24,000 nt of DNA. Origin: Vibrio pectenicida. Its GTDB lineage: Bacteria > Pseudomonadota > Gammaproteobacteria > Enterobacterales > Vibrionaceae. The notes below the pieces were generated by a model. That model searched no databases and was not told where the DNA came from. It saw only the letters and a program-made list of their open reading frames with translations. A program made the position numbers and the translations under genes. Position 1 is the stretch's first letter. Every line of letters begins with the position of its first letter. Location: assembly GCF_003937805.1 (NCBI RefSeq), contig NZ_RSFA01000009.1, one strand, 5' to 3'. Shown here in pieces: positions 3,805 to 24,000 of the stretch.

Positions 3805-3845
3805 AGTTTGAAATCTGTCACAAGACATTGCTTGAATTTCAAACT
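3805..3845. promoter_or_regulatory. Perfect 10-bp inverted repeat upstream of the orphan gene (operator or RNA hairpin candidate)
   Basis: agtttgaaat (3805-3814) and atttcaaact (3836-3845) are separated by 21 nt that contain a nested tgtc..gaca palindrome. The repeat sits 33 nt upstream of ATG 3878. Confidence 0.4.
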
Positions 3846-3877
3846 TGATTACGTATCTTTACACAATAAACCACTGT

Positions 3878-4825
3878 ATGGATGAACAGTTGAAGGGAAC
3901 TAAATTACAATTTCACTACTATTTTAATGATAATTCTCATGCTATGGATGCCATTATACGCAACCAGTGCGAAATTGAGATCCTTTCAATACTTTATGAA
4001 ATCGCAAATATACTCGATGCTCCTATCAAGATAGAAAGTGAAGCACATCAAGAAGGAGGATTACGTGATATTTGGAAGTTAGCCAATGCTAACGCTGGGG
4101 TTTTATCTGTCATTGTCGCAGTCGCTTCGATTGCCATACCCTTATTACCCAAATCAGATGCAGAATTAGAACGGCTGCAAAAAGAAGATTTACACCTTAG
4201 CATCCAAGAAAGAAAACTGAGAATACAAGTTCTTAAACAACAGGTTAACACCAAAGAAGTAGAGGCAGAAACGATTGAAAAAATGGTCGACTTGGTTAAT
4301 GGTAATTATAAAATTATTACACGTCGCTCCAATCTCTTTAAACACTTATGTGCTTACCCCAAAGTTACCAAAATCGGCATTAATGAGCTTAACTGTAATG
4401 GTATACCTGCAACTCCTGAGTCTCTAATTTTACGCTCTGCGTTTAAAAAATTTGTACTACCTTCTCATAAACTTCCAATACGAACCGTTGATAACGCCAT
4501 AATTGAAATCATCGCTCCCGTAATCGGCCAAGGTACATATAAGTGGAAAGGAATATGGCAAGGCCAAAATATCAATTTTTCTATGCGTGATAAATGCTTC
4601 ATACCAGATGTCTTAAACCAGAAAATGAGCTTTACAAGTGGTTCGAATATCCGATGTATCCTAAGTGTGCGATCTAAGCTGGATCACATCGGAGATATTG
4701 TTATTACAGGTTACTCTGTAGAGACTGTTCTTTCCTTTGGCATTGATGAAACACCACAAAGTAGAGTGCATCGCCATCAAAGTAACTTAGAAAAAGCGCA
4801 GGGCGATCTCTTTGCAAGTAGTTGA
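3878..4825 (+). CDS. Hypothetical single-pass membrane protein (orphan, AT-rich)
   Basis: A 315-aa open frame from ATG 3878; the track's TTG at 3845 lies inside the inverted repeat. It has one hydrophobic helix (GVLSVIVAVASIAIPLLP), a charged coiled-coil-like stretch (AELERLQKEDLHLSIQERKLRIQVLKQQV) and a beta-rich C-terminal half. No family recognised. A long ORF in visibly AT-rich DNA is unlikely to be chance. Confidence 0.65.
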   Translation: MDEQLKGTKLQFHYYFNDNSHAMDAIIRNQCEIEILSILYEIANILDAPIKIESEAHQEGGLRDIWKLANANAGVLSVIVAVASIAIPLLPKSDAELERLQKEDLHLSIQERKLRIQVLKQQVNTKEVEAETIEKMVDLVNGNYKIITRRSNLFKHLCAYPKVTKIGINELNCNGIPATPESLILRSAFKKFVLPSHKLPIRTVDNAIIEIIAPVIGQGTYKWKGIWQGQNINFSMRDKCFIPDVLNQKMSFTSGSNIRCILSVRSKLDHIGDIVITGYSVETVLSFGIDETPQSRVHRHQSNLEKAQGDLFASS

Positions 4826-5209: not shown

Positions 5210-5398
5210 TTCATTTCCTTGAACTGGTAAAGTAAGTGAACAATGGCATTAATATAATCCATACCATTGTCAAAACCTGTCAGGAGAGTTGTATTAAATG
5301 TTAAACAAAAACAGTTGAGGCTATATTAAGTACATAAGGCAACACATACTTTAAAGCCGATATGTAATGATTAAAAGCTTAGTTAGAAGCATAAAGAT

Positions 5399-6400
5399 CT
5401 ACTCAATAGAATTTTCATCTTTAAGGCTCCATTTGTGGTAGATTTCCCTGATCTCATCCTCTAGGCCTAAAAAAATCTCTACTAAATCTGGATCAAAGTG
5501 TGAACCAGAATTATTTTTAATTTCAATCAGCGCTTCTTCTATTGACCAAGCTTTTTTGTAAGGTCGCTCCATAGTCAGAGCATCAAACACATCGCAAATC
5601 GCTACAATCCTTGCACCTTGTGGTATCTGTTGACCCACTAAACCTTCAGGATATCCGGTACCATCCCAACGTTCATGATGCGATTTTGCGACGTCTGCGC
5701 CTAATTGGAATACAGGGTTAGAAGACATAGATAATATTTCGTGTCCAATCTCTGAATGTTTCTTCATAACCACCCATTCATCATCATCCAACCCTCTTGG
5801 GGCTTTTAGAATCGCATCAGGTATGCCGATTTTACCAGTGTCATGTAATGGTGCGGCTAGCTCCAACCGGTTATAATTTTCATAATCCCAACCCACAGCT
5901 TTAGCTAATAATTTACAATACTCCGCCATACGCCAAATATGGCTGCCAGTATCGGTATCGTTATAGTGACCAGCGACACCCAGCATTCGAATTGCTGATA
6001 GCGCCAAGGAATCGACTTCAGCCAACCGTGTCAGTGAGAGGTGAGTCGCCACACGTCGAAGTACAATAGCTGGAGAGAATGGCTTCGTAATATAATCGAC
6101 GGCTCCTAGGTCAAAACCCATTGACTGATCGTCGGTATCATCCTTGGCAGAAATAAAAATAACAGGAATATGAGAGGTCTCAGGGTTACGCTTTAGCCTG
6201 CGGCAGACTTCAAAGCCATCCATATCTGGCATCATGATATCGAGTAAAATAATATTAGGTTGAGGAGATGTACTGGCCAGCTTTAACGCTTTCTCACCAT
6301 TTGTTGCAGCTCTGACCGAGTAATTTCCTTTCTCCAGTACACTTTTTAGAATACGGATGTTATCCGGCACATCGTCAACAACTAAGATAGTTTTGTCCAT
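5399..6400 (-). CDS. Response regulator with HD-GYP output domain (RpfG-type c-di-GMP phosphodiesterase)
   Basis: REC domain: ILVVDDVPDN, phospho-acceptor context LLDIMMPDMDG, ITKPF. HD-GYP domain: LHDTGKIGIPD, HHERWDGTGYPEGL. The start lies 14 nt after the kinase stop. Confidence 0.93.
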   Translation of the reverse strand: MDKTILVVDDVPDNIRILKSVLEKGNYSVRAATNGEKALKLASTSPQPNIILLDIMMPDMDGFEVCRRLKRNPETSHIPVIFISAKDDTDDQSMGFDLGAVDYITKPFSPAIVLRRVATHLSLTRLAEVDSLALSAIRMLGVAGHYNDTDTGSHIWRMAEYCKLLAKAVGWDYENYNRLELAAPLHDTGKIGIPDAILKAPRGLDDDEWVVMKKHSEIGHEILSMSSNPVFQLGADVAKSHHERWDGTGYPEGLVGQQIPQGARIVAICDVFDALTMERPYKKAWSIEEALIEIKNNSGSHFDPDLVEIFLGLEDEIREIYHKWSLKDENSIE

Positions 6401-6414
6401 ACTTATCTCTTACT

Positions 6415-9159
6415 TTATCCTTGTAGGCTGGATAACATTGTATCCAAGCATTCTAGCGCTTCATCACTGTCATATATTTCAACAGCGTCATTCAAACGGT
6501 CAATTTGATCAGCTTTTACATGTCCTTGTATCATTGCGATTAGATTAGCTATGCTATCCTCTTCAAATTCCCCCAATTCAAGTTGCTCCCTAATCTCTGC
6601 ACTAAGAGCTATCACAACTTTACAGTCAAATTCCTGAGCTTGTACAAGCGACACTTCTGGCTGAAGACCGATTAAAGCAATCGACTCTAGTACTTGCTGT
6701 AATGCCGATGAGAGTTCGTTCCATGATTCAGAAATATCTTGGTCCTGTAACTTAAAAGCTTGCTCAAAAGTAAAGGCAACTTGAGATAAACGATGCGCGC
6801 CTAAAGAGGCAGAAGCTCCCTTCAAGGTATGGGCTGTAATTTCACCTTGTGAATAGTCTTTATCTGCCCATGAGGTTTTCAAATCGCTGAATGTACTTTG
6901 GTTATTTTTCGAAAAGCTATTGAGAAGTTTGGTGAACAGTATTCTATCATCATTGACTCTGGAGAGCCCTTCTTCAACATCAATACCAGGTAACTCCGGA
7001 AATGCCACATTATCTGCAACGTCATCACTTTGCTGTGGAGATGCAAACTCAAAATTGTCATCTTTGAATTTCGGATCGATCCACTTAAGTAACTTACTGT
7101 AAAGCTCACTGGTATCTATCGGTTTAGCGATATGGTCATTCATACCTGCTTCAGCGCATCGCTCTCGATCCTGTTGCATCGCATTAGCCGTCATAGCAAT
7201 GATAGGAAGCTCTCTTTGAGTGGGTTGTTCCCGAAGTACTCTTGCAGCCTCCAAACCATCCATCACTGGCATTTGTAAATCCATTAAGATGATGGCAAAC
7301 TTCCCATCAAGTGCCTTATCTACCCCTTCTTTTCCGTTGTTGGCTACTTCAACATTAAGGCCAACACTTTCAAGGAGCTCTATAGCGATAATTTGGTTAA
7401 CTTCATTATCCTCCACCAAAAGTACTGGTGCCCCACGAACTGTAGCAAAACTATCGTATAAGGCTTCACTCTCATTATTCTGACTTGAACTGTCAGAAAC
7501 CACAGCCTTACCCATAACCTCCATAACAGTATCCAGCAGCGCTGAAGCACTAACAGGTTTCACCAAGAAACCATCAATTTTTGCTTCAGACGCTTGGAGA
7601 ACGACTTCTTCTCTTCCATATGCGGTCATTAAAATAATTTTCGGGGGGCAATCAAGTGTCTTAATAATTTCAGATGCCTTAATACCATTCATTTCTGGCA
7701 TTTGCCAGTCCATTAAAACAAGCTCATAAGGACTGTCCTCAGCCATTGCTTTCTTAACCATATCAATGGCTTCAAATCCATTCACTGCGGTTGATATTTC
7801 AAGAGAGTAGGAATTAAGGAGTTCTTGGTTAATATCGCGGGCGCTTTTATTGTCATCAACGACGAGCGCTTTCATACCTTTGAGCTTTTTCCAATTGTAG
7901 ACACGCTCTTGCTGGTTCTCGATTTCTTTATCAAGAACACCAAACTCAGCGGTAAAGATAAAGCTACTCCCTTCTTGATAAACACTTTCTACCCAGATAT
8001 CACCATTCATCAGGTGCACCAAGTTCTGACAAATACTTAGGCCTAAACCAGTACCTCCATATTTACGAGTAGTTGAAGTATCGGCCTGGCTAAACGCACT
8101 AAATAGCTTTTGTATCTGTTCTGGCTTTAAACCTATACCTGTATCTTTGATCTCAAACTTTAATTTAACCCATTCGTTTAACTGCTCACAATTTGTGACT
8201 TTAACAATGATATCTCCTTGCTCAGTAAACTTGATTGCGTTATTGCAAAGGTTAGTGAGTATTTGACCAAGACGTAAAGGATCCCCAACCAACGAGTTGG
8301 GCAACTCTGGAGGAGTCGAGAAAATGACTTCCAATCCCTTTTCTTGTGCTTTTAGGGTAATTATTGTACATAAATCATCAAATACCTTATCAAGTTGAAA
8401 CGGTATTGACTCCATTTCCATTTTACCCGCTTCAATTTTAGAGATATCAAGAATGTCATTAATAATGCCCAACAATGCACGACCTGCTGAGTTTATTTTG
8501 CTAATGTAATCATGCTGCTTTGACGTCAATTGAGTCTTTAAAACAAGTTCACTCAGACCAATAACCGCATTCATCGGGGTACGTATTTCATGGCTCATAT
8601 TGGCCAAGAAATCACCTTTTGCCACATCTGCTTCTTTGGTTTTTTCTAAAGATATCTCTAATTCACGCATCAATTCTTGCTGCGAGAGCTGATTAAGCTT
8701 ATTACGTTGAATATCAACGTGTTCTTTAGGATAAAAGTTAGGATTGGGAAAACGTTTAAATGCCGTCAGCTTGTGTGAATGGTTACTCGCCGTCTCGACC
8801 GTAAAATAATCAAAAATGTAATCGTAATTCATTGACGTAACAGAACCGACTGCACTGTTAAGCTCAAGTTCAATTCCCCAGAGGTCAGCATTGCGAGAAA
8901 AAAAAAGTGCAACATTAAAACTGTCACAAGTGGATAAAAAGTTGTGACAAACTTCCGAAACAGCAGTCGCCAATCGCACTGAATTTACCCTAGAAAACTG
9001 ACAGTCTAGCGCAAGCCTTTTTACCTTATTTCTAAAATCAACAATAGATGGGCTATCTTCAATGCTGTATTCAGCAAGCTTAATGCTGCCTTCCTTAGAC
9101 GCTTGCTCCATTTCTTTTATGACGGTTTCGAGATTCATAGTCCATGTCCGAGTTCTCAA
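6415..9159 (-). CDS. Soluble hybrid sensor histidine kinase: RsbT-like degenerate N-domain, coiled coil, HisKA, HATPase_c, REC, REC, Hpt
   Basis: H-box SHEIRTPMNAVIG. N, G1 and G2 boxes NLCNNAIKFT, DTGIGL, GGTGLGLSI. REC1: VVDDN..LMDWQMPEMNG..VKP. REC2: LVEDNEVN..LMDLQMPVMDG..AKP. Hpt: HTLKGASASLG. No transmembrane segment is evident. TTG 9159 overlaps the rsbX stop (TTGA); the first ATG is at 9138 (MNLETV). Confidence 0.92.
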   Translation of the reverse strand: MRTRTWTMNLETVIKEMEQASKEGSIKLAEYSIEDSPSIVDFRNKVKRLALDCQFSRVNSVRLATAVSEVCHNFLSTCDSFNVALFFSRNADLWGIELELNSAVGSVTSMNYDYIFDYFTVETASNHSHKLTAFKRFPNPNFYPKEHVDIQRNKLNQLSQQELMRELEISLEKTKEADVAKGDFLANMSHEIRTPMNAVIGLSELVLKTQLTSKQHDYISKINSAGRALLGIINDILDISKIEAGKMEMESIPFQLDKVFDDLCTIITLKAQEKGLEVIFSTPPELPNSLVGDPLRLGQILTNLCNNAIKFTEQGDIIVKVTNCEQLNEWVKLKFEIKDTGIGLKPEQIQKLFSAFSQADTSTTRKYGGTGLGLSICQNLVHLMNGDIWVESVYQEGSSFIFTAEFGVLDKEIENQQERVYNWKKLKGMKALVVDDNKSARDINQELLNSYSLEISTAVNGFEAIDMVKKAMAEDSPYELVLMDWQMPEMNGIKASEIIKTLDCPPKIILMTAYGREEVVLQASEAKIDGFLVKPVSASALLDTVMEVMGKAVVSDSSSQNNESEALYDSFATVRGAPVLLVEDNEVNQIIAIELLESVGLNVEVANNGKEGVDKALDGKFAIILMDLQMPVMDGLEAARVLREQPTQRELPIIAMTANAMQQDRERCAEAGMNDHIAKPIDTSELYSKLLKWIDPKFKDDNFEFASPQQSDDVADNVAFPELPGIDVEEGLSRVNDDRILFTKLLNSFSKNNQSTFSDLKTSWADKDYSQGEITAHTLKGASASLGAHRLSQVAFTFEQAFKLQDQDISESWNELSSALQQVLESIALIGLQPEVSLVQAQEFDCKVVIALSAEIREQLELGEFEEDSIANLIAMIQGHVKADQIDRLNDAVEIYDSDEALECLDTMLSSLQG

Positions 9160-9734
9160 TTAACTCGGATGACTAGGCAAGTTGCATCATCTGATGCTTT
9201 TGCAAATTTCCGAGTAATATTTTGGGCGATAGTTTCAGCATTATCAGTATAGATGCTCGGGTAATCTTTTGGATCAAAATTACTCATGATTCCATCAGAA
9301 TAAAGGATCAATATTTCTCCAGGTACAAGTTGAACTGTATTTTTGACTGGTGTCCGTATTTGATAACCAAGTACACCTTGCTGGCAGATAAACCTTTGAA
9401 CTTCCTTACCAACTTTGCACATGAATATATTGCCAATACCCACGTAATCAAAACGCAATGAATTTATATCTAAATTAGCAATAATGGCAACGCCACCATT
9501 CGTGCTGCGCAAATTGTTGTGTAATTGTTCCATTAGCACGGGCAGATCTGTCTGGTACGATTGTTTCAAAAAGCTTCTTGTTGTACTGGCAATACTATGA
9601 GCACTTTTCCCATGACCAGCACCATCGAACAAGCTAATAAAATAGTCATTTCCATTCTGCTGATAAAAAGCATCATCCCCATTGACTTCTTCAAGTGGTT
9701 TTTCACCTATCGCTATCTCAATTTTTTCAGCCAT
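9156..9734 (-). CDS. rsbX: RsbX-like PP2C/SpoIIE-family serine phosphatase
   Basis: About 192 aa, similar in length and motif order to B. subtilis RsbX: GDDAF, FDGAGHGKSA, ILYSDGI, DDATCLVI. ATG 9734 overlaps the rsbT stop (TAATG) with AGGAAA upstream. An alternative in-frame ATG is at 9746. Confidence 0.85.
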   Translation of the reverse strand: MAEKIEIAIGEKPLEEVNGDDAFYQQNGNDYFISLFDGAGHGKSAHSIASTTRSFLKQSYQTDLPVLMEQLHNNLRSTNGGVAIIANLDINSLRFDYVGIGNIFMCKVGKEVQRFICQQGVLGYQIRTPVKNTVQLVPGEILILYSDGIMSNFDPKDYPSIYTDNAETIAQNITRKFAKASDDATCLVIRVN

Positions 9735-10135
9735 TATCTGCGCCATTTCCTTACCGTCACTTCAGTGCCAACACCAATTTCTGTTTCTATTTGCAGTGAA
9801 TCCATTAATCTCTGAGTGCCCGGTAAGCCAACCCCCATAGTACCGTGTGTACTGTAATTATCACTCAACGCTTTTTGCACATCATGTATACCGCCACCAC
9901 TATCTTTGGCAACGATTTCAACTCCAGTTCTGGTCTCATCTTCTAGATATTTTAAATACAACACTCCATGACCAGCATGATTAAGAATATTACGTGTCAG
10001 CTCACTAACTGCTATTGAAATCATGTATTGATCGACTGTCGAAAACCCAAGTTTTAGAGCAAACTTTTTCGCGTCTAAGCTAGCGTATCCAACGTCAGAG
10101 TCAGTCGCTATGTCTATTTTAATAATATTATCCAC
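9734..10135 (-). CDS. rsbT: RsbT-like stressosome serine kinase (anti-sigma-factor-type HATPase_c_2)
   Basis: 133 aa, the same length as B. subtilis RsbT and collinear with it: LGFSTVDQ, N-box IAVSELTRNIL, G1 DSGGGI, G2 GVGLPG, C-terminal VRKWRR. The GTG start has GGAGG 11 nt upstream. Confidence 0.9.
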   Translation of the reverse strand: MDNIIKIDIATDSDVGYASLDAKKFALKLGFSTVDQYMISIAVSELTRNILNHAGHGVLYLKYLEDETRTGVEIVAKDSGGGIHDVQKALSDNYSTHGTMGVGLPGTQRLMDSLQIETEIGVGTEVTVRKWRR

Positions 10136-10193
10136 TCCTGAGCCAACCTCCGATTCAGAAATAAAAGGGACTCACTCTACATTCTTAATAGTT

Positions 10194-10571
10194 TTATTTC
10201 TGATAATTGAGTAGGTAATCTAAAGCCTCCTCCATATTCCTTTTAGTCTTTAGATTGCTGGTATCCATATTGGAATCTATCATCGAAGCAATAATACCAG
10301 GACTTAAGCCAGTTACTGCGGTATGAGAGCCCATAACTTGAATCATATTGGCCGATTTGGTGAAAACATCCCACAGAGAGCTATCAACAATATCTACCCC
10401 AGAAAAATCAATAATCACACCAGCCACATGACGAGAACCTAGTGTATCCAAAATAACTTCTTGAACTCTTTTAGCATCCTCAATAGACAATTCATCTTGT
10501 ATAGGGACAATCAAGCAACGACTCATGTTATGAGTCACCACTTTGATCATGTTTTCTGCGGTGCTACTCAT
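10194..10571 (-). CDS. rsbS: RsbS-like single-domain STAS scaffold protein
   Basis: STAS fold signature with the phosphorylatable Ser context GVDIVDSS (cf. B. subtilis RsbS VDMIDSF) and TGLSPGIIASM. ATG 10571 has AGGA 8 nt upstream and overlaps the rsbR stop (ATGAGTAG). The ORF track extends to 10595. Confidence 0.87.
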   Translation of the reverse strand: MSSTAENMIKVVTHNMSRCLIVPIQDELSIEDAKRVQEVILDTLGSRHVAGVIIDFSGVDIVDSSLWDVFTKSANMIQVMGSHTAVTGLSPGIIASMIDSNMDTSNLKTKRNMEEALDYLLNYQK

Positions 10572-12135
10572 GCCATGATTCCTGATGTTCATCACTTTGG
10601 ATCAGTGTATAACCGGCAATTTTGAACGAGTTGTTAACTCCCTCTTTTAGGGTAGACTGAGTGACAACATCATTTAACTCAATGCCAAGATTAACTATCG
10701 CTTGAGCAACCACGGGAGAAATACCTGTCACTATACAAACACATCCCATAAGCCGCGTTGCTTTAGCAACCTTCAAAAGGTGATTTGCTACAGCACTGTC
10801 TACTGTAGGGACACCTTGTATATCTATCACTATCACCCGCGCTTCATAGTCGATAACTTTTTGTAATACGGCTTCCATAATCATCTGGATCCGGTTTGAA
10901 TCAATTAAGCCAATCACTGGTAACATCAATACTTTATCCCATAGCTGCATCACTGGAGTCGACATCTCCATTATCATCGATGCCTGCTTAGCTCGTTCTT
11001 CAGACATTTTTTTTCTATCAGTAATATCTGAAGCCACTTTGAGTACTTTGTATGGCTCACCTTTGAGATCTAACACTGGATTATAAGTTGCTTGAATAAA
11101 GACCTCGCGGCCATTTTTGGCAATACGTTTAAATTCTCCTGAAATAAACTGGCCTGCGCCGAGTTCACGCCAAAATTCTCTGTATTGCTCTGTTTCACTG
11201 TATTCTCGCTCACAAAATAGCCTATGGTGCTTACCTTGAATTTCTGCAAGGTTGTATCCCATAAGATCCAAAAAGTTTTGGTTGGCGGAAATAATGGTCC
11301 CGTCGAGATTAAATTCTATTGTGCCAAGCGATTTATCAATAGCATCAGCTTTAGCCTGCGCTTCATTACTAACCGTTTTATATTCTGTGATGTCTGAGGC
11401 AACCTTCAGTACTTTAACTAACTTGCCCTGCTCGTTGAATACAGGATTGTACGTTGCTTGAATAAATACTGTTTCTCCATCTTTGGTAACACGAATATAT
11501 TCACCGGAACTAAATTCACCTTTGCCAAGGCTATCCCAGAATTGGCTGTACTCCACACTCTGTCGGTATTGATCTTCACAAAAAATCCTATGATGCTTTC
11601 CTTTGATTTCATCAAGAGAATAATGCATTAAATCGAGAAAATTTTGATTGGCCGTGATAATGGTACCGTCTAAATTAAATTCAATGGTAGCTAATGATTT
11701 GTTTATAGCTTCAGTATGAGCTTTTGCCTTTAGACTGATAAGTTTGTTCTCAGTAATATCTGTCGCTACCTTGATTACTCGAATGGGCTTACCATTGCCA
11801 TCAAATACAGGGTTGTAAGTCGCTTGAAGGTAAATTTCATTACCACTTTTGGTCACTCGTTTGTACTCACCAGAATCAAATTCACCAGCACCTAAATTAT
11901 TCCAAAAATCTTTATAAGCACGACTTCGAGCATAGGTTGGTTGAACAAAAATCCTATGATGCTTTCCTTTGATTTCATCAAGCGTGTAACCAACAACATT
12001 TAGGAAGTTCTGATTCGCGTTAAAGATGGTCCCATCGAGCTCAAATTCTATTACTCCCTGAGACCTGTGAATTGCGTTGTACACGCTCTCGTATAATGCT
12101 GACTCATTATCAAAACCTTTGTTTGTTTTCTTCAT
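10564..12135 (-). CDS. rsbR: RsbR-like stressosome sensor: three tandem PAS domains plus a C-terminal STAS domain
   Basis: AAGGAG lies 5 nt upstream of ATG 12135 (MKKTNKG); the track's upstream extension to 12198 is probably non-coding. Three 122-aa units each carry IEF.LDGTI..AN.NFL...GY.L.EI.GKHHR.F...Y and ATYNPV....G......KVA.DIT. The C-terminal STAS resembles the RsbR C-terminus: VIDIQGVPTVDSAVANHLL, IVTGISPVVAQAIVNLGIEL. Confidence 0.88.
   Translation of the reverse strand: MKKTNKGFDNESALYESVYNAIHRSQGVIEFELDGTIFNANQNFLNVVGYTLDEIKGKHHRIFVQPTYARSRAYKDFWNNLGAGEFDSGEYKRVTKSGNEIYLQATYNPVFDGNGKPIRVIKVATDITENKLISLKAKAHTEAINKSLATIEFNLDGTIITANQNFLDLMHYSLDEIKGKHHRIFCEDQYRQSVEYSQFWDSLGKGEFSSGEYIRVTKDGETVFIQATYNPVFNEQGKLVKVLKVASDITEYKTVSNEAQAKADAIDKSLGTIEFNLDGTIISANQNFLDLMGYNLAEIQGKHHRLFCEREYSETEQYREFWRELGAGQFISGEFKRIAKNGREVFIQATYNPVLDLKGEPYKVLKVASDITDRKKMSEERAKQASMIMEMSTPVMQLWDKVLMLPVIGLIDSNRIQMIMEAVLQKVIDYEARVIVIDIQGVPTVDSAVANHLLKVAKATRLMGCVCIVTGISPVVAQAIVNLGIELNDVVTQSTLKEGVNNSFKIAGYTLIQSDEHQESWHE
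10999..12099 (-). repeat. Intragenic tandem triplication, 366-nt period (the three PAS modules of rsbR)
   Basis: The protein repeat period is exactly 122 aa. The 36-nt string aaaaatcctatgatgctttcctttgatttcatcaag is identical at 11581-11616 and 11947-11982 (offset 366). The third copy at 11215-11250 matches 28/36. Confidence 0.85.
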
Positions 12136-12411
12136 GACCACTCCTTGGATTGATTTCACCCAACAAAAATACCTAAACAACTCGATGGTAATAATCAATC
12201 AACTATAGAAGAAGGTCGCAAAAACAGCCCACCTAAAATCTAATCATCAGTAAATAAAAATAAATATCTTCGCGCATTACTTAGTGCACAAATTACAACT
12301 TTTCTTTTGTTTAAGTACTTGATACACCAATAAGTTACTACTGTATTTTGGCAAAATTGACTATTCTTAAAGTAAACCAGTGCGATGCGAAAGAATAATA
12401 GGAATAATTCA

Positions 12412-13803
12412 ATGGCTCAGGATAACTACAACAAGCTTTCTGACGGTGAACTTGAGTATGTGGATGATAAAACTGCCGCGCTATTATTAAATACTCCCAG
12501 TAGTGCACGTATAATGCTTTGGGTGATGGTACTCTTTTTAATCCTAGCGGCAGTCTGGGCTTCATGGGCAAAAATAGATAAAGTTACTGTTGGAGAAGGC
12601 AAAGTGGTCCCCTCTTCTCAAGTACAAATAGTGCAAAACCTTGAGGGGGGACTTGTTAAGGAAATCTTAGTTCGTGAAGGTCAATCAGTTCAAAAAGGCC
12701 AGCAACTACTTTTAATTGATGACACGCGTTTTCGGTCCGACTTTCGCGAACGTGAACAACAAATAGCTAACCTAACCGCAAGCGTTTTACAGTTGTCTGC
12801 TTCCATGACCAGCGTCACCGTCAATGAAAAAAATGACCAAAAATCTTGGAAAAAAAGAGTCGAAATCAACTTCAACAAGCTAGCCTTCCCTCCTTCTTTG
12901 GCTGAAAGACAACCGCGGCTGGTCGCCAGACAACGCGCCGAGTACCAACAAGACCTTAATAATTTAAGTAATCGTCTCTCAGTGATTGACCAGCAAGTAA
13001 AACAAAAACAACAAGACTTGGTTGAAATCCAAGCTCGTGTGGAAAACTTACGTGATAGTTATAACTTTGCCCGCAAAGAGCTTGAAATAACTCAACCGCT
13101 CGCAGACGAAGGGGTAGTACCGCAAATAGAACTATTGAAATTACAAAGACAGGTTAATGACACACAAAGAGAAATGACCTCAAGTGAACTTAAAATACCA
13201 GTATTAAAGTCGGCCATTCAAGAGGCCATGCTAAATCGTATTGATGCTGCCCAGAAATTTCGCTCAGAGCAACAGGAAAAGCTCAACCAAGCTCAGGATA
13301 AACTCTCTTCACTTACTGAATCCAGTGTAGGCTTAGAAGATAGAGTAAACCGAACCATCGTCATTTCACCCGTGATGGGAACCGTTAAAACACTCAATGT
13401 TAATACCGTAGGTGGCGTAATACAGCCAGGTATGGATATAGTAGAAATAGTGCCTAGCGAAGACACTCTGCTCGTTGAAGCAAAAATTGCCCCACAGGAC
13501 ATTGCTTTTTTGCGGCCAAACTTAAATGCCATTGTTAAATTTAGTGCTTACGACTTTACTAAATATGGTGGACTAGAAGGCAGTCTCGAACACATTAGTG
13601 CTGATACCACAACAGATGAAGAAGGAAATAGCTTTTATCTTGTAAGAGTAAGGACCAAAGAAACTAGTCTTAACAATGATGCATTGTTACCCATCATACC
13701 TGGTATGACAGCATCAGTGGATATAATTACAGGCAAGAGAACGGTTATGGAATATTTACTTAAGCCGATTCTCGGTGCCAAAAATAACGCATTAAAGGAA
13801 TAA
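12412..13803 (+). CDS. lapC: Type I secretion membrane-fusion (periplasmic adaptor) protein, HlyD family, LapC-like
   Basis: Short cytoplasmic N-tail, one TM helix (IMLWVMVLFLILAAVWASWA), a long coiled-coil middle and a C-terminal barrel with typical HlyD strings (VISPVMGTVKTLNV, GGVIQPG, IVEIVPSEDTLLVEAKI.PQDI, PGMTASVDIITGKRTVMEYLLKP). AGGA lies upstream of ATG 12412; an alternative ATG is at 12385. Confidence 0.9.
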   Translation: MAQDNYNKLSDGELEYVDDKTAALLLNTPSSARIMLWVMVLFLILAAVWASWAKIDKVTVGEGKVVPSSQVQIVQNLEGGLVKEILVREGQSVQKGQQLLLIDDTRFRSDFREREQQIANLTASVLQLSASMTSVTVNEKNDQKSWKKRVEINFNKLAFPPSLAERQPRLVARQRAEYQQDLNNLSNRLSVIDQQVKQKQQDLVEIQARVENLRDSYNFARKELEITQPLADEGVVPQIELLKLQRQVNDTQREMTSSELKIPVLKSAIQEAMLNRIDAAQKFRSEQQEKLNQAQDKLSSLTESSVGLEDRVNRTIVISPVMGTVKTLNVNTVGGVIQPGMDIVEIVPSEDTLLVEAKIAPQDIAFLRPNLNAIVKFSAYDFTKYGGLEGSLEHISADTTTDEEGNSFYLVRVRTKETSLNNDALLPIIPGMTASVDIITGKRTVMEYLLKPILGAKNNALKE

Positions 13804-13848
13804 ATATGCTCAATACTCGACTCAAACATTCGTCTAAAATGTAGCGCA

Positions 13849-14511
13849 ATGAAGTTCTGGCTTTCTATCCTCGTGATAATTTTAGTTTCAACGGCTTCAA
13901 AAGCACTCAACACCCAAGAGCAGCGTTGGGTAGAAGCAGTTCGCAAAACTTATGGAGAGCGAGCAGGAAAGAGGGTAGAAACTTGGCGTCGAGAAATGGT
14001 GCAATTTAAAGCAATTTCAGAAAAAGAAAAGTTGGTCAAAGTAAACCGTTTCTTCAATCAACTAAACTTCGTTAATGACGATCGCCTCTGGGGCAAAAAG
14101 GATTATTGGGCCACACCACTTGAATTTCTTGGCAGTAATGGTGGAGATTGTGAAGATTTTACGATTGCAAAATATTTTTCATTACTTGAGCTTGGGGTCT
14201 CGGACAGAAAGCTGAGGCTGGTTTACGTTAAAGCAATCTCATTAAACCAGTTCCATATGGTATTAGCTTACTACTCGAAACCAAGCGCAGAACCCATTTT
14301 GCTCGATAATATTGACCCACAAATAAAAAGAGCCTCAAAACGCAGAGATTTATTACCAATTTACAGCTTCAATGGTAAAAACTTGTGGCTAATGAAGTCG
14401 AAAAAAGGACAGCTGGCAGGGAAGTCATCAAGACTTAGTTTATGGAATGATCTCAGAGCCAGAGAAAAATCACTCAAATTGAATAAACCAATTTTAAATT
14501 ACGATGAGTAA
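13849..14511 (+). CDS. lapG: LapG-like periplasmic transglutaminase-like cysteine protease (BTLCP/DUF920)
   Basis: Signal peptide MKFWLSILVIILVSTASKA. Nucleophile context GGDCEDFTIAKY, then His (FHMVLAYY) and Asp (LLDNID), matching the C-H-D triad order of the LapG family. It sits next to a LapD-type receptor. Confidence 0.88.
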   Translation: MKFWLSILVIILVSTASKALNTQEQRWVEAVRKTYGERAGKRVETWRREMVQFKAISEKEKLVKVNRFFNQLNFVNDDRLWGKKDYWATPLEFLGSNGGDCEDFTIAKYFSLLELGVSDRKLRLVYVKAISLNQFHMVLAYYSKPSAEPILLDNIDPQIKRASKRRDLLPIYSFNGKNLWLMKSKKGQLAGKSSRLSLWNDLRAREKSLKLNKPILNYDE

Positions 14512-14516
14512 GCAAT

Positions 14517-16427
14517 ATGACTTTATATAAACAACTTGTCGCGGGAATGATAGCAGTATTTCTGATGCTGATGGTCTCCGTCTTCATCATCGAATTTAAC
14601 ACAACGCGAAATAGCTTGATTCAACAGCAGCGTTCAGAAATGAACAATACTATTAACACCGTTGGCCTTGCCTTAGCCCCCTACCTTGAGAGCAAAGATC
14701 AAGTCGCCGTAGAATCTGTGGTTAATGCTCTATTTGATGGCAGTACCTACTCCATTGTTCGATTGATTTTTTTAGATAATGGTGAAGAAATCATACGCTC
14801 CTATCCCGTTAAACCACTCGACGTACCGGACTGGTTCACCAATCTTAATTTATTTGAACGCATTCACGATCGCCGAGTCGTCACCAGTGGTTGGATGCAA
14901 CTCGCAGAGGTTGAGATAGTCAGCCACACTGGGGAAGCCTACGCCCAGTTGTGGAATGCCTTCTTACGGCTACTTGTTGCGTTTAGCATCATTTTTTCCA
15001 TTGGTTTATTATCGATTGCTTTTATTCTCAAGCGCGCATTACGTCCGTTATTGCTGATAGTAACCAAGATGGAACAAGTCGCTAAGAATCAATTCGGCGA
15101 CCCATTACCTATGCCAAAAACCCTAGATCTTATTGCAGTGGTTGAAGGAATAAATAGTATGTCAACGCAAGTTGAGCAGTCTTTCAAAGCTCAAGCAAAG
15201 GAAGCTCAACAACTTAGAGAACGCGCCTATATTGATCCAGTATCTGGGCTTGGTAACCGCGCTTACTACATGAACCAACTCAATGCATGGCTTGGAGAAA
15301 GTGGAGTAGGAGGCGTCGCTATCCTTGAAGCACATTTTCTTACTGAAATTTATGAGGAGAAAGGATACAAAGAAGGAGACAGTTTAGTAAAAGAACTTGC
15401 TAACCAACTCAGCGTTGCACTCAACTCATCTGAAATGACTATTGCGCGAATTTCTAATGAAGAATTTGGCTTCATTATGCCTAATATGGATGAGGGAGAA
15501 CTAAAATCGATTTCGGAGGGCATTGTTAATTATGCTCATGGGACCAATGCAGATCCGACAGGAATGGCCAAATCAAATTTAGCTCTAGGCGTGGTGTATA
15601 ACGAAAGTAATAAGAGCACCTCTGATATTCTGACGATGCTGGACAACGCTCTTGCAACCGCAAAATCTGATCCAGAAATCAATTATGGCTATGTCACTAG
15701 CGATAACTCAGAGAATCTAATGGGTAAGCAGCAGTGGAAAACACTGGTTGAAGAAGCGATGAGCAATGATTGGTTTAAATTCCGTTATCAAGCAGCTAAT
15801 GATGGCTCAGGCAAGACTTATCATCGCGAAGTTTTCTCCGCAATAGAAAGGGATGGGGAGAGGTTCAGCGCCAATCAATATATGTTTGCATTAGAACAAC
15901 TTCATGCCAGCCATATATTTGATGAGTACGTAATAGAAATCATGGTATCTCAACTTGAAAATGGCGTATTCTCAGACCCAGTCGCTATCAATATTTCTCA
16001 AAGCAGCATTGCTGAACCAAGCTTTATCCGCTGGATCGGCCAAGTCTTAGGCAAACATAAATCTGCTGCAGCTCTTTTACATTTTGAAATACCTGAAAAC
16101 TGCTTTGTCAATACACCACACCATACTGCTCTTTTCTGTAATGCCGTCAGGAGTGCAGGGGCTGATTTTGGTGTAGATAATTACGGTCGAAATTTCCAGT
16201 CTTTGGACTATATCAACGAATTCAGACCTGCTTATGTTAAAGTTGATTACTTGTATACACATCATTTAGATGATGAAAATCAGAAGTTTACCTTAACTTC
16301 CATTTCACGAACTGCACACAACCTTGGTATAAAGACCATTGCATCGCGAGTTGAAACACAAGCCCAACTTGATTTCTTGGCTGAACATTTTATCGATGTA
16401 TTCCAAGGTTTTATTGTAGATAAGTAA
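14517..16427 (+). CDS. lapD: LapD-like inner-membrane c-di-GMP receptor (periplasmic LapD_N domain, HAMP, degenerate GGDEF, degenerate EAL)
   Basis: Two TM helices flank a roughly 125-aa periplasmic domain carrying the GW loop (TSGWMQ, W126). A HAMP-like segment follows. The GGDEF-domain start is DPVSGLGNRAYY, but the signature is SNEEF rather than GG(D/E)EF. EAL-domain signatures are degenerate: EVF for EAL, DNYG for DDFG, ASRVE for EGVE; QGF is retained. Confidence 0.87.
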   Translation: MTLYKQLVAGMIAVFLMLMVSVFIIEFNTTRNSLIQQQRSEMNNTINTVGLALAPYLESKDQVAVESVVNALFDGSTYSIVRLIFLDNGEEIIRSYPVKPLDVPDWFTNLNLFERIHDRRVVTSGWMQLAEVEIVSHTGEAYAQLWNAFLRLLVAFSIIFSIGLLSIAFILKRALRPLLLIVTKMEQVAKNQFGDPLPMPKTLDLIAVVEGINSMSTQVEQSFKAQAKEAQQLRERAYIDPVSGLGNRAYYMNQLNAWLGESGVGGVAILEAHFLTEIYEEKGYKEGDSLVKELANQLSVALNSSEMTIARISNEEFGFIMPNMDEGELKSISEGIVNYAHGTNADPTGMAKSNLALGVVYNESNKSTSDILTMLDNALATAKSDPEINYGYVTSDNSENLMGKQQWKTLVEEAMSNDWFKFRYQAANDGSGKTYHREVFSAIERDGERFSANQYMFALEQLHASHIFDEYVIEIMVSQLENGVFSDPVAINISQSSIAEPSFIRWIGQVLGKHKSAAALLHFEIPENCFVNTPHHTALFCNAVRSAGADFGVDNYGRNFQSLDYINEFRPAYVKVDYLYTHHLDDENQKFTLTSISRTAHNLGIKTIASRVETQAQLDFLAEHFIDVFQGFIVDK

Positions 16428-16444
16428 CAAGGTTATAGCCGTAC

Positions 16445-18559
16445 ATGCAAGATCCTTTACTCAATTCACTCATATACATCAGTCGATATTTTGGTTTAGC
16501 TAATTCGCCTGAAGCACTAATTAATGGTTTACCATTGTCCTCAGGGAAACTAACACCATTTCTTTTCCCTCGAGCAACCGAACGTGCAGGTTTAATCGCT
16601 AAGGAAAACCGTTCTAACTTGACAGACATCTCAGAGTTAGTATTACCGGTCGTCTTACTCCTTAAGGATGGAGATGCCTGTGTATTAAACACCATTAACT
16701 TAGAGAAGCAGGAAGCTGAAATTGTGACTGGGGAATCAGGCCTAGTGCCTACTGCTGTATCATTGGAAGAACTCAATGAGCTCTATATTGGCCGTTATTT
16801 CCTAGTTAAAAAGCAGTTCCGATATGATGAACGCTCGCCCGAGATACTAAAGACCCGAGAAGGGCATTGGTTCTGGAGCACGTTGTGGCAGTCAAGAAAT
16901 ATCTACAGAGATGTATTTATTGCCTCGATACTGATTAACATGTTCGCAGTTGCTGCCCCCATGTTTACCCGCTTAGTCTATGACAAAGTTGTTCCAAATT
17001 TAGCTTTTGAAACACTTTGGGTGCTGGCTAGCGGTATCTTTGCAATTTTTATATTTGAACTGACACTAAAAATTCTTCGTAGCTACTTTATCGATGTCGC
17101 TGGCAAGAAATCTGACATTTTAATCTCATCAAAAATATTTAGTAAAGTACTAGGAATTCGAATGGAAGCAAGGCCTCCATCTGTTGGCGCTTTTGCTAAA
17201 CATTTACAAGAATTCGAATCAATTCGAGAATTTTTTGCTTCCGCGACAATTGGCTCCTTAATAGATTTACCATTCGCTCTTCTATTTCTTTTATTAATCT
17301 GGTTGATGGCAGGCAGCTTAGTCATTATACCGATTATAGGTGTATTGATTTTAGTGATTTACTCAATAATCATACAAGGGCCACTGAAACGTTCCATTGA
17401 AGAAGGCTCACGTTTAGCATCACAAAAATATGCCAATCTCATTGAGAGCTTATCTGGCCTAGAAACTCTCAAACTTTTCGGTGCACAAAGCCAATTTCAA
17501 TATAAATGGGAAGAAGCTGTTGCTCATATGTCCAAATGGAGTATTAAAAGCAAACGTATTACAGATGGAATCCACAATACCGCCGGCTTTGTTCAACAAG
17601 CATCCAACATTGGCATGATCATTCTCGGTGTCTATTTAATTGCTGATGGCGAGCTAACAATGGGCGGACTCATTGCAGCAACCATGCTTAGTAATCGTGC
17701 CATTGGCCCTATGGTTCAGCTCTCATTGCTTTCTACACGTTACAATCAAGCAAAATCCTCTTTGGCTATTATTGAACAAATCATGGCAATGCCAGATGAA
17801 CAAGAAGAAGGTAAACGTTATATACATCGCCCCATTGTTAAAGGTAAAATTGAATTAGATAAAGTTACCTTTAACTACCCAGATGCCCCTATCGCTTCAA
17901 TACGAGATTTAAGTCTCACAATCAATCCCGGTGAAAAAGTCGCGATCATTGGCAGAATAGGATCTGGTAAAACCACACTTGAGCGTCTAATACTTGGGCT
18001 TTATAAACCTACTGAAGGCCATGTTCGTATCGATGACACTGATATCCAGCAACTGCACCATATCGATATCAGGCGTAATATCGGCTGTGTGCCTCAAGAC
18101 AGTCAGCTGTTTTATGGGTCCATACGAGACAATATCACGCTTGGACGACCTCTCGCCGACGACCGAGATATTATGGATGCAGCCAATCGTGCTGGAGTCA
18201 CTGTCTTTACTCAACAAGATCCAGCAGGATTGGAACGACAAGTTGGCGAGGGAGGTTTACTTCTTTCTGGAGGTCAGCGCCAGGCAGTTACTATCGCACG
18301 TGCATTTTTACATAGACCACCTGTTTTACTGATGGACGAACCTACCAGTGCAATGGATAATCGCTCTGAGATGCAAATTAAACAGCAACTTTCTCAGCTA
18401 AAAAAATCTGAAACTTTGGTTTTGATAACCCATAAAACGTCCATGTTGGAAGTGGTTGATCGAATAATAGTTATGGAAAAAGGCACTATTATTACCGATG
18501 GTCCAAAAGCTGAAGTTCTCAATAACCTTAGGCAAGGCAACATTCGCGCTGTAAATTAG
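16445..18559 (+). CDS. lapB: Type I secretion ABC transporter (ATPase/permease) with N-terminal C39-like domain, LapB/HlyB-type
   Basis: The N-terminal ~130 aa resemble a C39 peptidase-like domain but lack a catalytic Cys near the N-terminus. A six-helix ABC membrane domain follows. Walker A GRIGSGKTT, signature LSGGQRQ, Walker B LLMDEPTS, H-loop ITHK. Confidence 0.92.
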   Translation: MQDPLLNSLIYISRYFGLANSPEALINGLPLSSGKLTPFLFPRATERAGLIAKENRSNLTDISELVLPVVLLLKDGDACVLNTINLEKQEAEIVTGESGLVPTAVSLEELNELYIGRYFLVKKQFRYDERSPEILKTREGHWFWSTLWQSRNIYRDVFIASILINMFAVAAPMFTRLVYDKVVPNLAFETLWVLASGIFAIFIFELTLKILRSYFIDVAGKKSDILISSKIFSKVLGIRMEARPPSVGAFAKHLQEFESIREFFASATIGSLIDLPFALLFLLLIWLMAGSLVIIPIIGVLILVIYSIIIQGPLKRSIEEGSRLASQKYANLIESLSGLETLKLFGAQSQFQYKWEEAVAHMSKWSIKSKRITDGIHNTAGFVQQASNIGMIILGVYLIADGELTMGGLIAATMLSNRAIGPMVQLSLLSTRYNQAKSSLAIIEQIMAMPDEQEEGKRYIHRPIVKGKIELDKVTFNYPDAPIASIRDLSLTINPGEKVAIIGRIGSGKTTLERLILGLYKPTEGHVRIDDTDIQQLHHIDIRRNIGCVPQDSQLFYGSIRDNITLGRPLADDRDIMDAANRAGVTVFTQQDPAGLERQVGEGGLLLSGGQRQAVTIARAFLHRPPVLLMDEPTSAMDNRSEMQIKQQLSQLKKSETLVLITHKTSMLEVVDRIIVMEKGTIITDGPKAEVLNNLRQGNIRAVN

Positions 18560-22259: not shown

Positions 22260-22675
22260 AACTGTCTCTCTCATTCCTATGACTTTCCCTAAGGTGGGCA
22301 AGTCTTGTCTATTCTTATCAACAAAGGCCACTCAGAGGCGCGCTCTGTGATAAGTAGGCTCTATTCTTCGATTACCATCCGATGTACATATTTCCGAAGA
22401 ACCTATTTTGAGTATTTAAGAGACTTTTTTTTTGATGAAAAAAATAAACATTGTTTTCGAGGCAAGCTTAAAAATTCGCAGAGCAAATTTACTTTGTTAC
22501 ACTGTAAACTGGATATCGACCCAAATTTTATAAAATATTAGCCAAGGTTAATGTTTCAACTATTAACTATAAAAGTTAACTTTCCGTGAAATCTTATCAC
22601 TTTGACATTCATCTAATTGAAATATTCCGATTCACTAGGCAAAGTGTACGCTAACCAAAATAAGTGGATCGAGTC

Positions 22676-23323
22676 ATGAACATCAAAACAACATTCTTGG
22701 CTGCAGCAGCTCTGACGATAAGCAACATGGCTGTAGCTGACGTGACAATAACAATACCGGACACAGTTGATGTCTTGGTTGTAAATGATGATAAGCCAGA
22801 ACTGTCTGGAAGTTTTTTCTCCAAAACAAAAAAGTTAACCCTACCCGACGGAGAGAACCAAATTTTGTTCCGTTACCAGCCTTATTTCACGCAAGGTAAT
22901 GACCGTATCATCCTCGAAAGTGACCCGATTATTACAAAATTCGACGCCAGTGAAACCGAGCTTACTTTTGATATGCCAAAATACCGAGACCGACATGAAG
23001 GTGAAAAGGAAATCAAAAACTTTAAGTGGCAATTAACCACGGCTAGCGGTTCCGCTTTAGCAATAACACAAGATAAACTCGTCAAAGATGGAATGCAGAT
23101 TGGCCGAAATTTCAAGCTAGAATTAGCTGACTATAATCGCCGAGGCGGTGTTGCTGCTATAGCACCTATGGCAGCAACTGCCGTACTGCCAACCAAAAAA
23201 GTCGCAAGTGGCAACCTAGGTACAGATTCAACCGCAGAAGAAATGTTACATTTTTGGTACAAAAAAGCCGATGCAGAAACTCAATCTCGCTTTAAAGAAT
23301 TCTTGCTAAGCAACGGCTCATAA
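22676..23323 (+). CDS. yccT: UPF0319/DUF2057 family periplasmic protein (YccT-like)
   Basis: Signal peptide MNIKTTFLAAAALTISNMAVA. The overall layout and the C-terminal motif (EEMLHFWYKKADAETQSRFKEFLL) match the YccT/UPF0319 family as I recall it. ATG 22676 is preferred over GTG 22664. Confidence 0.8.
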   Translation: MNIKTTFLAAAALTISNMAVADVTITIPDTVDVLVVNDDKPELSGSFFSKTKKLTLPDGENQILFRYQPYFTQGNDRIILESDPIITKFDASETELTFDMPKYRDRHEGEKEIKNFKWQLTTASGSALAITQDKLVKDGMQIGRNFKLELADYNRRGGVAAIAPMAATAVLPTKKVASGNLGTDSTAEEMLHFWYKKADAETQSRFKEFLLSNGS

Positions 23324-23328
23324 CACTA

Positions 23329-23357
23329 AACAGCCAGTGTATTAAGCGCTGGCTGTT
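23329..23357. terminator. Hairpin between convergent yccT-like and HD-GYP genes
   Basis: Perfect 9-bp arms aacagccag (23329-23337) / ctggctgtt (23349-23357) with an 11-nt loop. The right arm overlaps the last codons of the minus-strand gene. There is no clear T-run on either side. Confidence 0.35.
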
Positions 23358-24000
23358 GCTTGCTCTGCTGTTGAAATAAAATAGCATTCTTGGCTATTTT
23401 CTTGTAAGCAATCGAATACTAGCTGGTCTAATTTACCATCCTCAACCAAAGCACGTATAATTTGTAGAGCCTCATTAATAGTTAGACCCTGACGATATGG
23501 TCGAGATTGAGTCAAAGCTTGAAAAACATCGCCAATCGCAATAATTCGGCTCGGAAGATCAATATCATTCGCCGACTTTCCTAGCGGGTATCCAGAACCA
23601 TCAAGTCTTTCATGATGATTCGCAGCCCATTCAACAATCTGGCTTGACTGAAAAATATTCATCAAGGTATGCCGAGTATCTGTGGCATGACGTTTAATAC
23701 ACGCATATTCCTGTTTGGTTAAATCTGTCGGTTTATGAAGCACAACTGACGGGGTTTTCAATTTACCTATGTCGTGAACTAACCCAGCTAAATACAACAT
23801 ACGTTGTGCTTTAGCTGAAAAGCCGAGCTTTTTGCCAATAAAGGCGCTGAGGCGAGCGACTTTACGTGAGTGCTGGCAGGTGAAAGGGCTTTTGGTATCG
23901 ACAATCTCTGCAAAAAGTTCGGCGACTGAAATCGAGTTTTCTAACCCCATTCGCGCAGCAAAAAAAGGCACACTCGGGAAGCGACTCGCCATAGTCTCAA
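23342..24000 (-). CDS. HD-GYP domain protein (c-di-GMP phosphodiesterase family), probably truncated at its 5' end by the window edge
   Basis: HD motif VHDIGKLKTP and HHERLDGSGYPLG. The frame remains open upstream of the ATG at 23992 to nt 24000, so an N-terminal sensor or REC domain may lie outside the window. Confidence 0.85.
   Translation of the reverse strand, partial: ETMASRFPSVPFFAARMGLENSISVAELFAEIVDTKSPFTCQHSRKVARLSAFIGKKLGFSAKAQRMLYLAGLVHDIGKLKTPSVVLHKPTDLTKQEYACIKRHATDTRHTLMNIFQSSQIVEWAANHHERLDGSGYPLGKSANDIDLPSRIIAIGDVFQALTQSRPYRQGLTINEALQIIRALVEDGKLDQLVFDCLQENSQECYFISTAEQATASA

Follow-up and report, generated by a model that had tools for sequence, protein, structure and literature searches.

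A stressosome-HD-GYP cassette and the lapCGDB operon, two modules of known kinds, lie back to back in one narrow Vibrio clade

The locus described here, a six-gene stressosome-kinase-HD-GYP cassette that lies back to back with the lapCGDB operon in a stretch of 24,000 nucleotides (the window) of chromosome 2 of Vibrio pectenicida, has close relatives among systems that are already known. In the RpfC/RpfG system, a hybrid kinase passes phosphate to a REC-HD-GYP response regulator, which degrades cyclic diguanosine monophosphate (c-di-GMP). In Pseudomonas fluorescens, RapA is an EAL phosphodiesterase under Pho control. In V. vulnificus, the genes of RsbR, RsbS, RsbT and RsbX are followed by those of the two-component system D1/D2, which is predicted to degrade c-di-GMP, and its deletion lowers motility (PMC10014275). 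The stressosome of V. brasiliensis senses oxygen by means of a globin (PMC4976288). The lapC, lapG, lapD and lapB genes of V. cholerae are VCA1080, VCA1081, VCA1082-3 and VCA1084, respectively, and the genes of its adhesins, FrhA and CraA, and of a LapE-like protein lie away from this operon (PMC6890996). According to the established Lap model, a fall in c-di-GMP makes LapD release LapG (PMC6890996).

All ten genes of the locus were confirmed by the open reading frame (ORF) listing and by Pfam (Table 1). The genes of RsbR, RsbS, RsbT, RsbX, the hybrid kinase and the REC-HD-GYP regulator are encoded on the minus strand and diverge from the plus-strand lapC-lapG-lapD-lapB. The public annotation (AP024890.1) places the start of rsbR at 12135 and that of lapC at 12412, which leaves a divergent spacer of 276 base pairs (bp). 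The gene identifications and the divergent layout given in a first-pass annotation of the window are therefore correct. That annotation had also put forward a complete circuit, in which a cytoplasmic signal sensed by the stressosome activates the HD-GYP regulator, local c-di-GMP falls, and LapD frees LapG to cleave a surface adhesin. The steps of this circuit are individually sound and coherent, but synteny largely fails to back it and the two sides have discordant histories. The reading preferred here, to which a probability of roughly 0.7 is assigned, is that two self-contained modules of known kinds lie back to back through a lineage-specific arrangement and are coupled, at most, via the shared c-di-GMP pool. 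The position of the modules is no proof of a dedicated circuit and speaks for one weakly.

The adjacency of the rsb and lap genes was checked directly in six genomes and is present in all of them: two strains of V. pectenicida, Vibrio sp. Of14-4, V. tetraodonis, V. aquimaris and V. zhanjiangensis. LapC proteins of at least 91% identity and members of the 90% cluster of the regulator lie on contigs of matching length in ten assemblies, which suggests that both modules share one contig in every sampled clade genome. A genome scan with an RsbT alignment, in which most of the matches listed came from distant phyla and two Vibrio loci were informative, found lap genes within 10 kilobases (kb) of rsbT in only 2 of the 80 listed reference-genome loci, those of Of14-4 and V. 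tetraodonis. Both have the whole 20-kb layout of the window. Further stressosome contexts were gathered protein by protein. Psychromonas aquimarina carries the same PAS-type six-gene cassette among unrelated neighbours, none of them a lap gene, and a related RsbRSTX-kinase cluster of Luminiphilus, taken without its downstream regulator, has no lap neighbour. The globin-type cassettes of V. vulnificus, V. atypicus, V. coralliilyticus and V. mimicus also sit away from lap. V. atypicus is a direct control, having both modules at different places.

The search from the lap side gave the same picture. The lapCGDB operon is intact and has pdxH at its left in V. cholerae, in a V. brasiliensis-like contig, in V. 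atypicus and in two further contigs; in these loci pdxH is preceded by a PAS-LuxR gene and by PEGA/sulfatase genes. A metagenome scan returned 80 lapC loci of 48-88% identity, 62 of which extended 1.5 kb or more upstream of lapC and were informative. Stressosome genes upstream of lapC were found in none of these 62 loci, even at a relaxed threshold. In most of the Vibrio-like metagenomic loci pdxH is again found beside lapC, and the more distant ones have the gene order lapB-lapC-lapG-lapD. The adjacency is thus confined to one narrow Vibrio clade: the conservation among relatives for which the first-pass annotation had proposed a check holds in every sampled genome of the clade and is absent outside it.

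Several observations accompany this survey. The globin-type cassette is divergent from the gene of a 518/519-amino-acid PAS chemoreceptor (methyl-accepting), which in V. mimicus lies one gene away (about 7300-9800 in each of the loci L087-L090), and this pairing is more widespread than the pairing with lap. Directly upstream of lapC and in the same orientation, some Vibrio-like metagenomic loci have the gene of a dCache histidine kinase and that of an NtrC-type regulator (REC-AAA-Fis). This suggests that in those lineages the sensory input to the lap operon is of another kind and possibly transcriptional. Different signalling modules have therefore been put beside the lap operon more than once. 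An assembly labelled V. hepatarius encodes an RsbT and a LapC that are 98% and 94% identical, respectively, to those of V. pectenicida, while LapC of other V. hepatarius is 83-84% identical; the label is probably a species mislabel. Carriage of the cassette on a plasmid was considered and rejected, as the sole full-length match in PLSDB is chromosome 2 of V. aquimaris. This 1.32-megabase replicon (NZ_CP045351.1), which has the same rsb-lap layout, is filed there as plasmid pTHAF100_a with no gene annotation.

Comparison of genomes within the clade indicates that the cassette is a horizontally mobile, replaceable unit. In V. zhanjiangensis, the flanks are of the clade type, with Lap proteins 86-94% identical to those of the window and DNA 73-79% identical. 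Between the glyoxalase gene and lapC, however, the slot is occupied by a globin-RsbR cassette (L083:2863-9776), equivalent to about 5311-12180 of the window, and its proteins are only 27-42% identical to those of the window cassette. Homology between the window and V. zhanjiangensis ends at about 5310 and returns at about 12180-12279, as defined by blastn and by alignment of the intergenic DNA. The V. zhanjiangensis cassette is 92% identical in DNA to the V. vulnificus locus over 6,695 bp, a sign that it was transferred horizontally in recent times. In V. zhanjiangensis, a non-orthologous cassette of horizontal origin has thus replaced the earlier one in place.

The two strains of V. pectenicida show that the two sides of the locus differ in history even within one species. 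The lap DNA of the second strain is 96-99% identical to that of the window (gene means), with most 200-bp blocks at 92-100%, and LapC, LapG, LapD and LapB are 98-100% identical as proteins. Between about 5210 and 12200, DNA identity falls to 65-86%, save for a near-identical patch in rsbX (96-100%), and the proteins are 77% (kinase), 79% (RsbT), 76% (RsbS) and 86% (RsbR) identical. These proteins of the two strains differ from each other as much as either set differs from that of V. tetraodonis. This discordance between the lap and rsb proteins argues that the two sides have no common history, and the notion that they are inherited together fails here. The divergence of the cassette within the species points to the replacement of alleles or to diversifying selection that acts on the sensory module. 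It is greatest in rsbT, in both ends of the kinase gene and in parts of rsbS and rsbR. The segment encoding the N-terminus of the kinase (8808-9159) and rsbT have a DNA identity of 68-71%, and the end encoding the C-terminal Hpt domain (6408-7007) is equally diverged. The high divergence shared by the N-terminal segment and rsbT would fit co-evolving partners, but this is only a hint.

Neither in the window nor in V. zhanjiangensis do direct or inverted repeats of 13 bp or longer border the cassette, and neither an integrase nor a tRNA gene was found near the cassette in the window. Recombination through the flanks would be the likeliest route of the cassette swaps.

Judged by domain content, the stressosome components RsbR (a sensor-STAS protein), RsbS, RsbT and RsbX are all encoded. 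RsbR has an annotated length of 523 amino acids. Pfam finds no Protoglobin domain in it and three PAS domains instead, whose coding sequences are recognisable repeats at the DNA level, 64-69% identical to one another. The motif GKHHR[IL]F is present in each of the three PAS domains and the LOV cysteine motif in none. A role of RsbR as a LOV photoreceptor was considered, since the third PAS domain together with STAS resembles the YtvA family, and was rejected on the ground that the protein carries GKHHR[IL]F and not the cysteine motif NCRFL. RsbS aligns to the RsbS proteins of Bacillus subtilis and Listeria (6JHK and 6QCM) and retains the phospho-serine motif VDxxDS; its VDIVDS corresponds to VDMIDS and IDFIDS of these two proteins. 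In B. subtilis, the serine of this motif is the site phosphorylated by RsbT. RsbT (HATPase_c_2) and RsbX (SpoIIE/PP2C) are encoded directly downstream in the gene order R-S-T-X, with rsbX placed after rsbT as in other stressosome loci. Homologs of the RsbT protein are named anti-sigma regulatory factor or RsbT.

The kinase, which has an annotated start at 9138 (907 amino acids), possesses the HTLKG motif of the Hpt domain and both receiver Asp residues. Its N-terminal 174 amino acids have no Pfam match up to E = 10, and a single-sequence AlphaFold (AF2) model of residues 1-175 has a mean predicted local distance difference test (pLDDT) score of only 36. This domain could be the part that receives RsbT. 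In the regulator, the HD dyad and the HHERWDGTGYP motif are intact, and the receiver Asp is found within LLDIMMPDMDG. Its residues 137-328 align with the active HD-GYP enzyme PmGH (4MCW) over the whole catalytic domain (E = 1e-52), in line with the c-di-GMP-degrading activity predicted for this protein. The V. aquimaris ortholog of the regulator is named RpfG in one database.

The lap side of the locus is equally well defined. LapC, the ortholog of V. cholerae VCA1080, matches TIGR01843 at 444 bits, over the cut-off, and is 80-86% identical across dozens of Vibrio species. LapB matches TIGR03375 at 962 bits, also over the cut-off. The best NCBIfam matches of LapD and LapG are LapD and LapG, yet both fall under the equivalog cut-offs, which are based on Pseudomonas. 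LapG matches the Legionella LapG structures 4U65 (1e-49) and 4FGO (1e-44), and its identification as the protease is borne out by a signal peptide and the triad of Cys101, His137 and Asp153. Some NCBI and UniRef records give the name 'sulfate adenylyltransferase' to a protein identical to this LapG, an evident misannotation of a BTLCP protease. The assignment of LapD as a degenerate GGDEF-EAL receptor is likewise upheld. Its catalytic motifs read SNEEF for GGDEF and EVF for EAL, the cytoplasmic GGDEF-EAL module (residues 222-636) matches the V. cholerae LapD structure 6PWJ (E = 1e-206), and the periplasmic domain matches 3PJV and 4U64, the output domains of P. fluorescens and Legionella LapD. 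The full-length protein is 77% identical to its V. cholerae ortholog, and this orthology suggests that it would bind c-di-GMP and sequester LapG in a c-di-GMP-dependent manner. The 24-kb window encodes no TolC-like LapE, nor does it encode a giant RTX adhesin that has a retention module at its N-terminus and a site for cleavage by LapG.

Table 1. Coordinates of the features of the window and of genes upstream of lapC in metagenomic loci (L112, L138 and L103)
Feature	Coordinates	Strand	Evidence
REC + HD-GYP response regulator, predicted c-di-GMP phosphodiesterase	5399..6400	-	Pfam Response_reg 2e-29, HD_5 1e-32
Cytoplasmic hybrid histidine kinase, HisKA-HATPase-REC-REC-Hpt after an N-terminal domain of ~175 amino acids	6415..9159	-	Pfam
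RsbX-like PP2C phosphatase	9156..9746	-	Pfam SpoIIE 8e-13
RsbT-like GHKL serine kinase	9734..10135	-	Pfam HATPase_c_2
RsbS, single STAS domain	10194..10571 (or 10595)	-	Pfam STAS
RsbR, three tandem PAS + C-terminal STAS	10564..12135	-	Pfam PAS_3 x3 + STAS
Divergent intergenic spacer, 276 bp	12136..12411	.	Alignments, GC
LapC, HlyD-type type I secretion membrane-fusion protein	12412..13803	+	TIGR01843
LapG, periplasmic BTLCP cysteine protease	13849..14511	+	Pfam Peptidase_C93
LapD, inner-membrane c-di-GMP receptor, LapD_MoxY_N-GGDEF-EAL	14517..16427	+	Pfam
LapB, type I secretion ABC permease/ATPase	16445..18559	+	TIGR03375
Replaceable six-gene stressosome-kinase-HD-GYP cassette, extent	5311..12180	.	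Loss/return of homology to V. zhanjiangensis
dCache kinase/NtrC-type regulator genes upstream of lapC	L112:5772-8889; L138:5674-8886; L103:859-2163		

The analysis itself shows which domains are present, whether their motifs are intact, which proteins are orthologs and where the synteny occurs. From this and the literature we infer the action of RsbT on the kinase, the activation of the HD-GYP domain and any effect on LapD. Upon a signal sensed by the PAS domains, the stressosome formed by the triple-PAS RsbR, RsbS and RsbT would release RsbT, with RsbX as the reset phosphatase. Stressosomes are pseudo-icosahedral complexes of ~1.8 MDa in which RsbT is sequestered. By analogy with the V. vulnificus literature, RsbT would then switch on the soluble hybrid kinase, which would pass phosphate along a His-Asp-His(Hpt)-Asp relay to the REC-HD-GYP regulator, as in RpfC/RpfG. 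Phosphorylation would activate the HD-GYP domain, and the phosphorylated regulator would hydrolyse c-di-GMP. On the other side, lapCGDB is the standard Vibrio operon, in which c-di-GMP-bound LapD would keep LapG at the inner membrane and LapG would cleave type-I-secreted adhesins encoded elsewhere in the genome. Falling c-di-GMP would shift LapD to the LapG-releasing state (PMC6890996). A link from the stressosome through c-di-GMP to LapD is thus mechanistically possible. The cassette presumably occupies a recombination-active slot that, within the V. pectenicida clade, happens to border lapC. If the cassette affects LapD, it would most likely do so as other phosphodiesterases do, via the c-di-GMP pool that the whole cell shares.

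The spacer between rsbR and lapC is composed of two parts. About 45 bp adjoining rsbR belong to the cassette. The remaining ~230 bp on the lapC side (about 12180-12411) are conserved in alignments across the clade with either cassette type, and contain an invariant TCAACTATAGA block and a block of ~95 bp closer to lapC, both of which are kept with both cassette types. Conserved blocks span about 12183-12225 and 12290-12385. The spacer could not be aligned with the DNA upstream of lapC in V. cholerae, the V. brasiliensis-like contig or V. atypicus. A consensus scan found no sigma-70-like promoter in it, and no Rfam family, the c-di-GMP riboswitch included, matches the spacer or the whole window. 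The first-pass annotation had described the spacer as AT-rich. Its guanine-plus-cytosine (GC) content of 0.319 agrees with this, but is no different from the values in the rest of the intergenic DNA of the window (0.307-0.372), which makes the AT-richness ordinary and uninformative.

The strongest competitor of the preferred reading is a dedicated circuit, in which the stressosome-run HD-GYP regulator is a specific input of LapD, acting by local depletion of c-di-GMP or by direct contact. This is considered unlikely. The accompanying proposal, that a cytoplasmic signal sensed by PAS (oxygen in V. zhanjiangensis) triggers the shedding of adhesins by LapG and that selection has kept the two modules adjacent, is doubtful to the same degree. 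In favour of such a circuit, every component is intact and the order of the steps is mechanistically coherent. A specific phosphodiesterase that undoes the activation of LapD is, moreover, part of the established Lap model (PMC6890996). The slot is filled in all sampled genomes of the clade, even after the non-orthologous swap for a cassette of the same architecture. Against it, the adjacency disappears outside the clade whether the search starts from lap or from the stressosome, the two sides differ in history within one species, and the cassette of the V. vulnificus type works from another genomic position, beside a chemoreceptor gene. Vibrio genomes have dozens of c-di-GMP genes, and a chance neighbour of that type is therefore not rare. 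The 24-kb window itself has three c-di-GMP-related genes, those of the REC-HD-GYP regulator, of LapD and of a second HD-GYP protein (23342-23992).

Several points nevertheless weigh against the reading of two modules brought together by lineage-specific arrangement. The slot beside lapC is never empty and never carries unrelated cargo in the sampled genomes of the clade. The architecture of its cassette has stayed the same although the PAS type occurs as at least three deeply diverged alleles and has once given way to a version only 27-42% identical, and this persistent occupancy despite turnover could reflect selection for position. The clade-conserved ~230 bp on the lapC side would allow shared regulation. 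Together, the conservation of the spacer and the occupancy of the slot lend weak, non-decisive support to a positional or regulatory advantage. Finally, the HD-GYP activity is expected to reach LapD via the global pool, and full independence of the two modules is unlikely.

A coupling at the level of transcription, in which the 276-bp divergent region co-regulates the rsb operon and lapCGDB and the link is one of expression and not of c-di-GMP flow, appears less probable still than the dedicated circuit. It would account for the two spacer blocks being retained with both cassette types. The consensus scan, however, found no promoter-like sites, the stretch that is conserved is the one towards lapC and may be no more than the regulatory region of that gene, and the conservation does not extend to the three lapC upstream regions from outside the clade. 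The least probable reading is a mere hot-spot accident, with cassettes as neutral passengers of a plasticity zone left of lapC that takes any DNA: the left flank is indeed a mosaic between the conspecific strains (nitroreductase 85%, SgrR-like 92% and glyoxalase 89% DNA identity against 96-99% for lap) and other Vibrio lineages have pdxH or the dCache kinase and NtrC-type regulator upstream of lapC, but the same functional type of cassette, and not assorted cargo, is present in every sampled clade genome, and the integration site bears no mark in the form of an integrase, a tRNA or boundary repeats.

Two further neighbours of the locus deserve mention. The second HD-GYP gene encodes a stand-alone protein (a 216-amino-acid ORF on the minus strand) and lies about 5 kb from lapB, beside a DUF2057 gene on the plus strand (22664-23323); a DUF2057 gene near lapCGDB is also found in V. 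cholerae, V. atypicus and V. zhanjiangensis. On the other side, the plus-strand ORF 3845-4825 (315/326 amino acids), which belongs to no Pfam family, is present at the same position throughout the clade with 69-97% identity.

In the literature searched, no paper was found that joins a stressosome with LapD or LapG, in agreement with the first-pass statement that no such link had been described. If true, the link would be the first defined physiological output of a Gram-negative stressosome, namely surface detachment, and the LapD/LapG switch would gain an HD-GYP two-component branch among its inputs. The value of the locus as it stands is more modest than a proven link would give. The Vibrio stressosome-kinase-HD-GYP unit emerges as a mobile, rapidly exchanged six-gene cassette whose sensor is of at least two types, PAS or globin. 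The culturable species V. pectenicida, V. tetraodonis, V. aquimaris and V. zhanjiangensis form a small set that is suited to a clean test of the coupling.

The right half of the locus closely resembles the Lap system of V. cholerae (VCA1080-VCA1084). The order lapC-lapG-lapD-lapB is the same, the proteins are 77-86% identical, and neither operon contains the genes of LapE and the adhesin. The difference lies to the left of lapC, where the window has the stressosome cassette and V. cholerae has pdxH. The logic is also that of the P. fluorescens Lap system, in which a signal-activated phosphodiesterase lowers c-di-GMP, LapD frees LapG and the adhesin is cut (PMC6890996). The input in P. fluorescens, however, is the Pho-controlled EAL protein RapA and not an HD-GYP regulator under a stressosome. 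The kinase and regulator of the window resemble Xanthomonas RpfC/RpfG in combining a HisKA-HATPase-REC-Hpt kinase with a REC-HD-GYP regulator that degrades, or in the window is predicted to degrade, c-di-GMP. The sensor kinase RpfC resides in the membrane and perceives the diffusible signal factor (DSF), whereas the window kinase is soluble, has two receiver domains and, by its gene context, would be coupled to the stressosome.

The closest relatives of the left half are the stressosome loci of V. vulnificus and V. brasiliensis. They share with the window the six-gene order, the Hpt hybrid kinase followed by the REC-HD-GYP regulator, the lack of SigB and the predicted role in lowering c-di-GMP. 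They differ from it in the sensor of RsbR, which is a heme globin in place of three PAS domains, and in their neighbour, which is a PAS chemoreceptor gene in place of lapC. D1 of V. vulnificus has an N-terminal PAS domain, whereas the window kinase lacks it and begins with a domain of ~175 amino acids without a Pfam match. The window proteins are 27-42% identical to those of the globin-type cassette, the D1 and D2 equivalents being 40-42% identical. For V. vulnificus, a stressosome has been described that feeds into a two-component system with predicted c-di-GMP-degrading activity (PMC10014275), and the left half of the locus is therefore not new. It is of an already-known kind, to which the window adds a PAS-sensor member of the Vibrio stressosome-two-component cassette.

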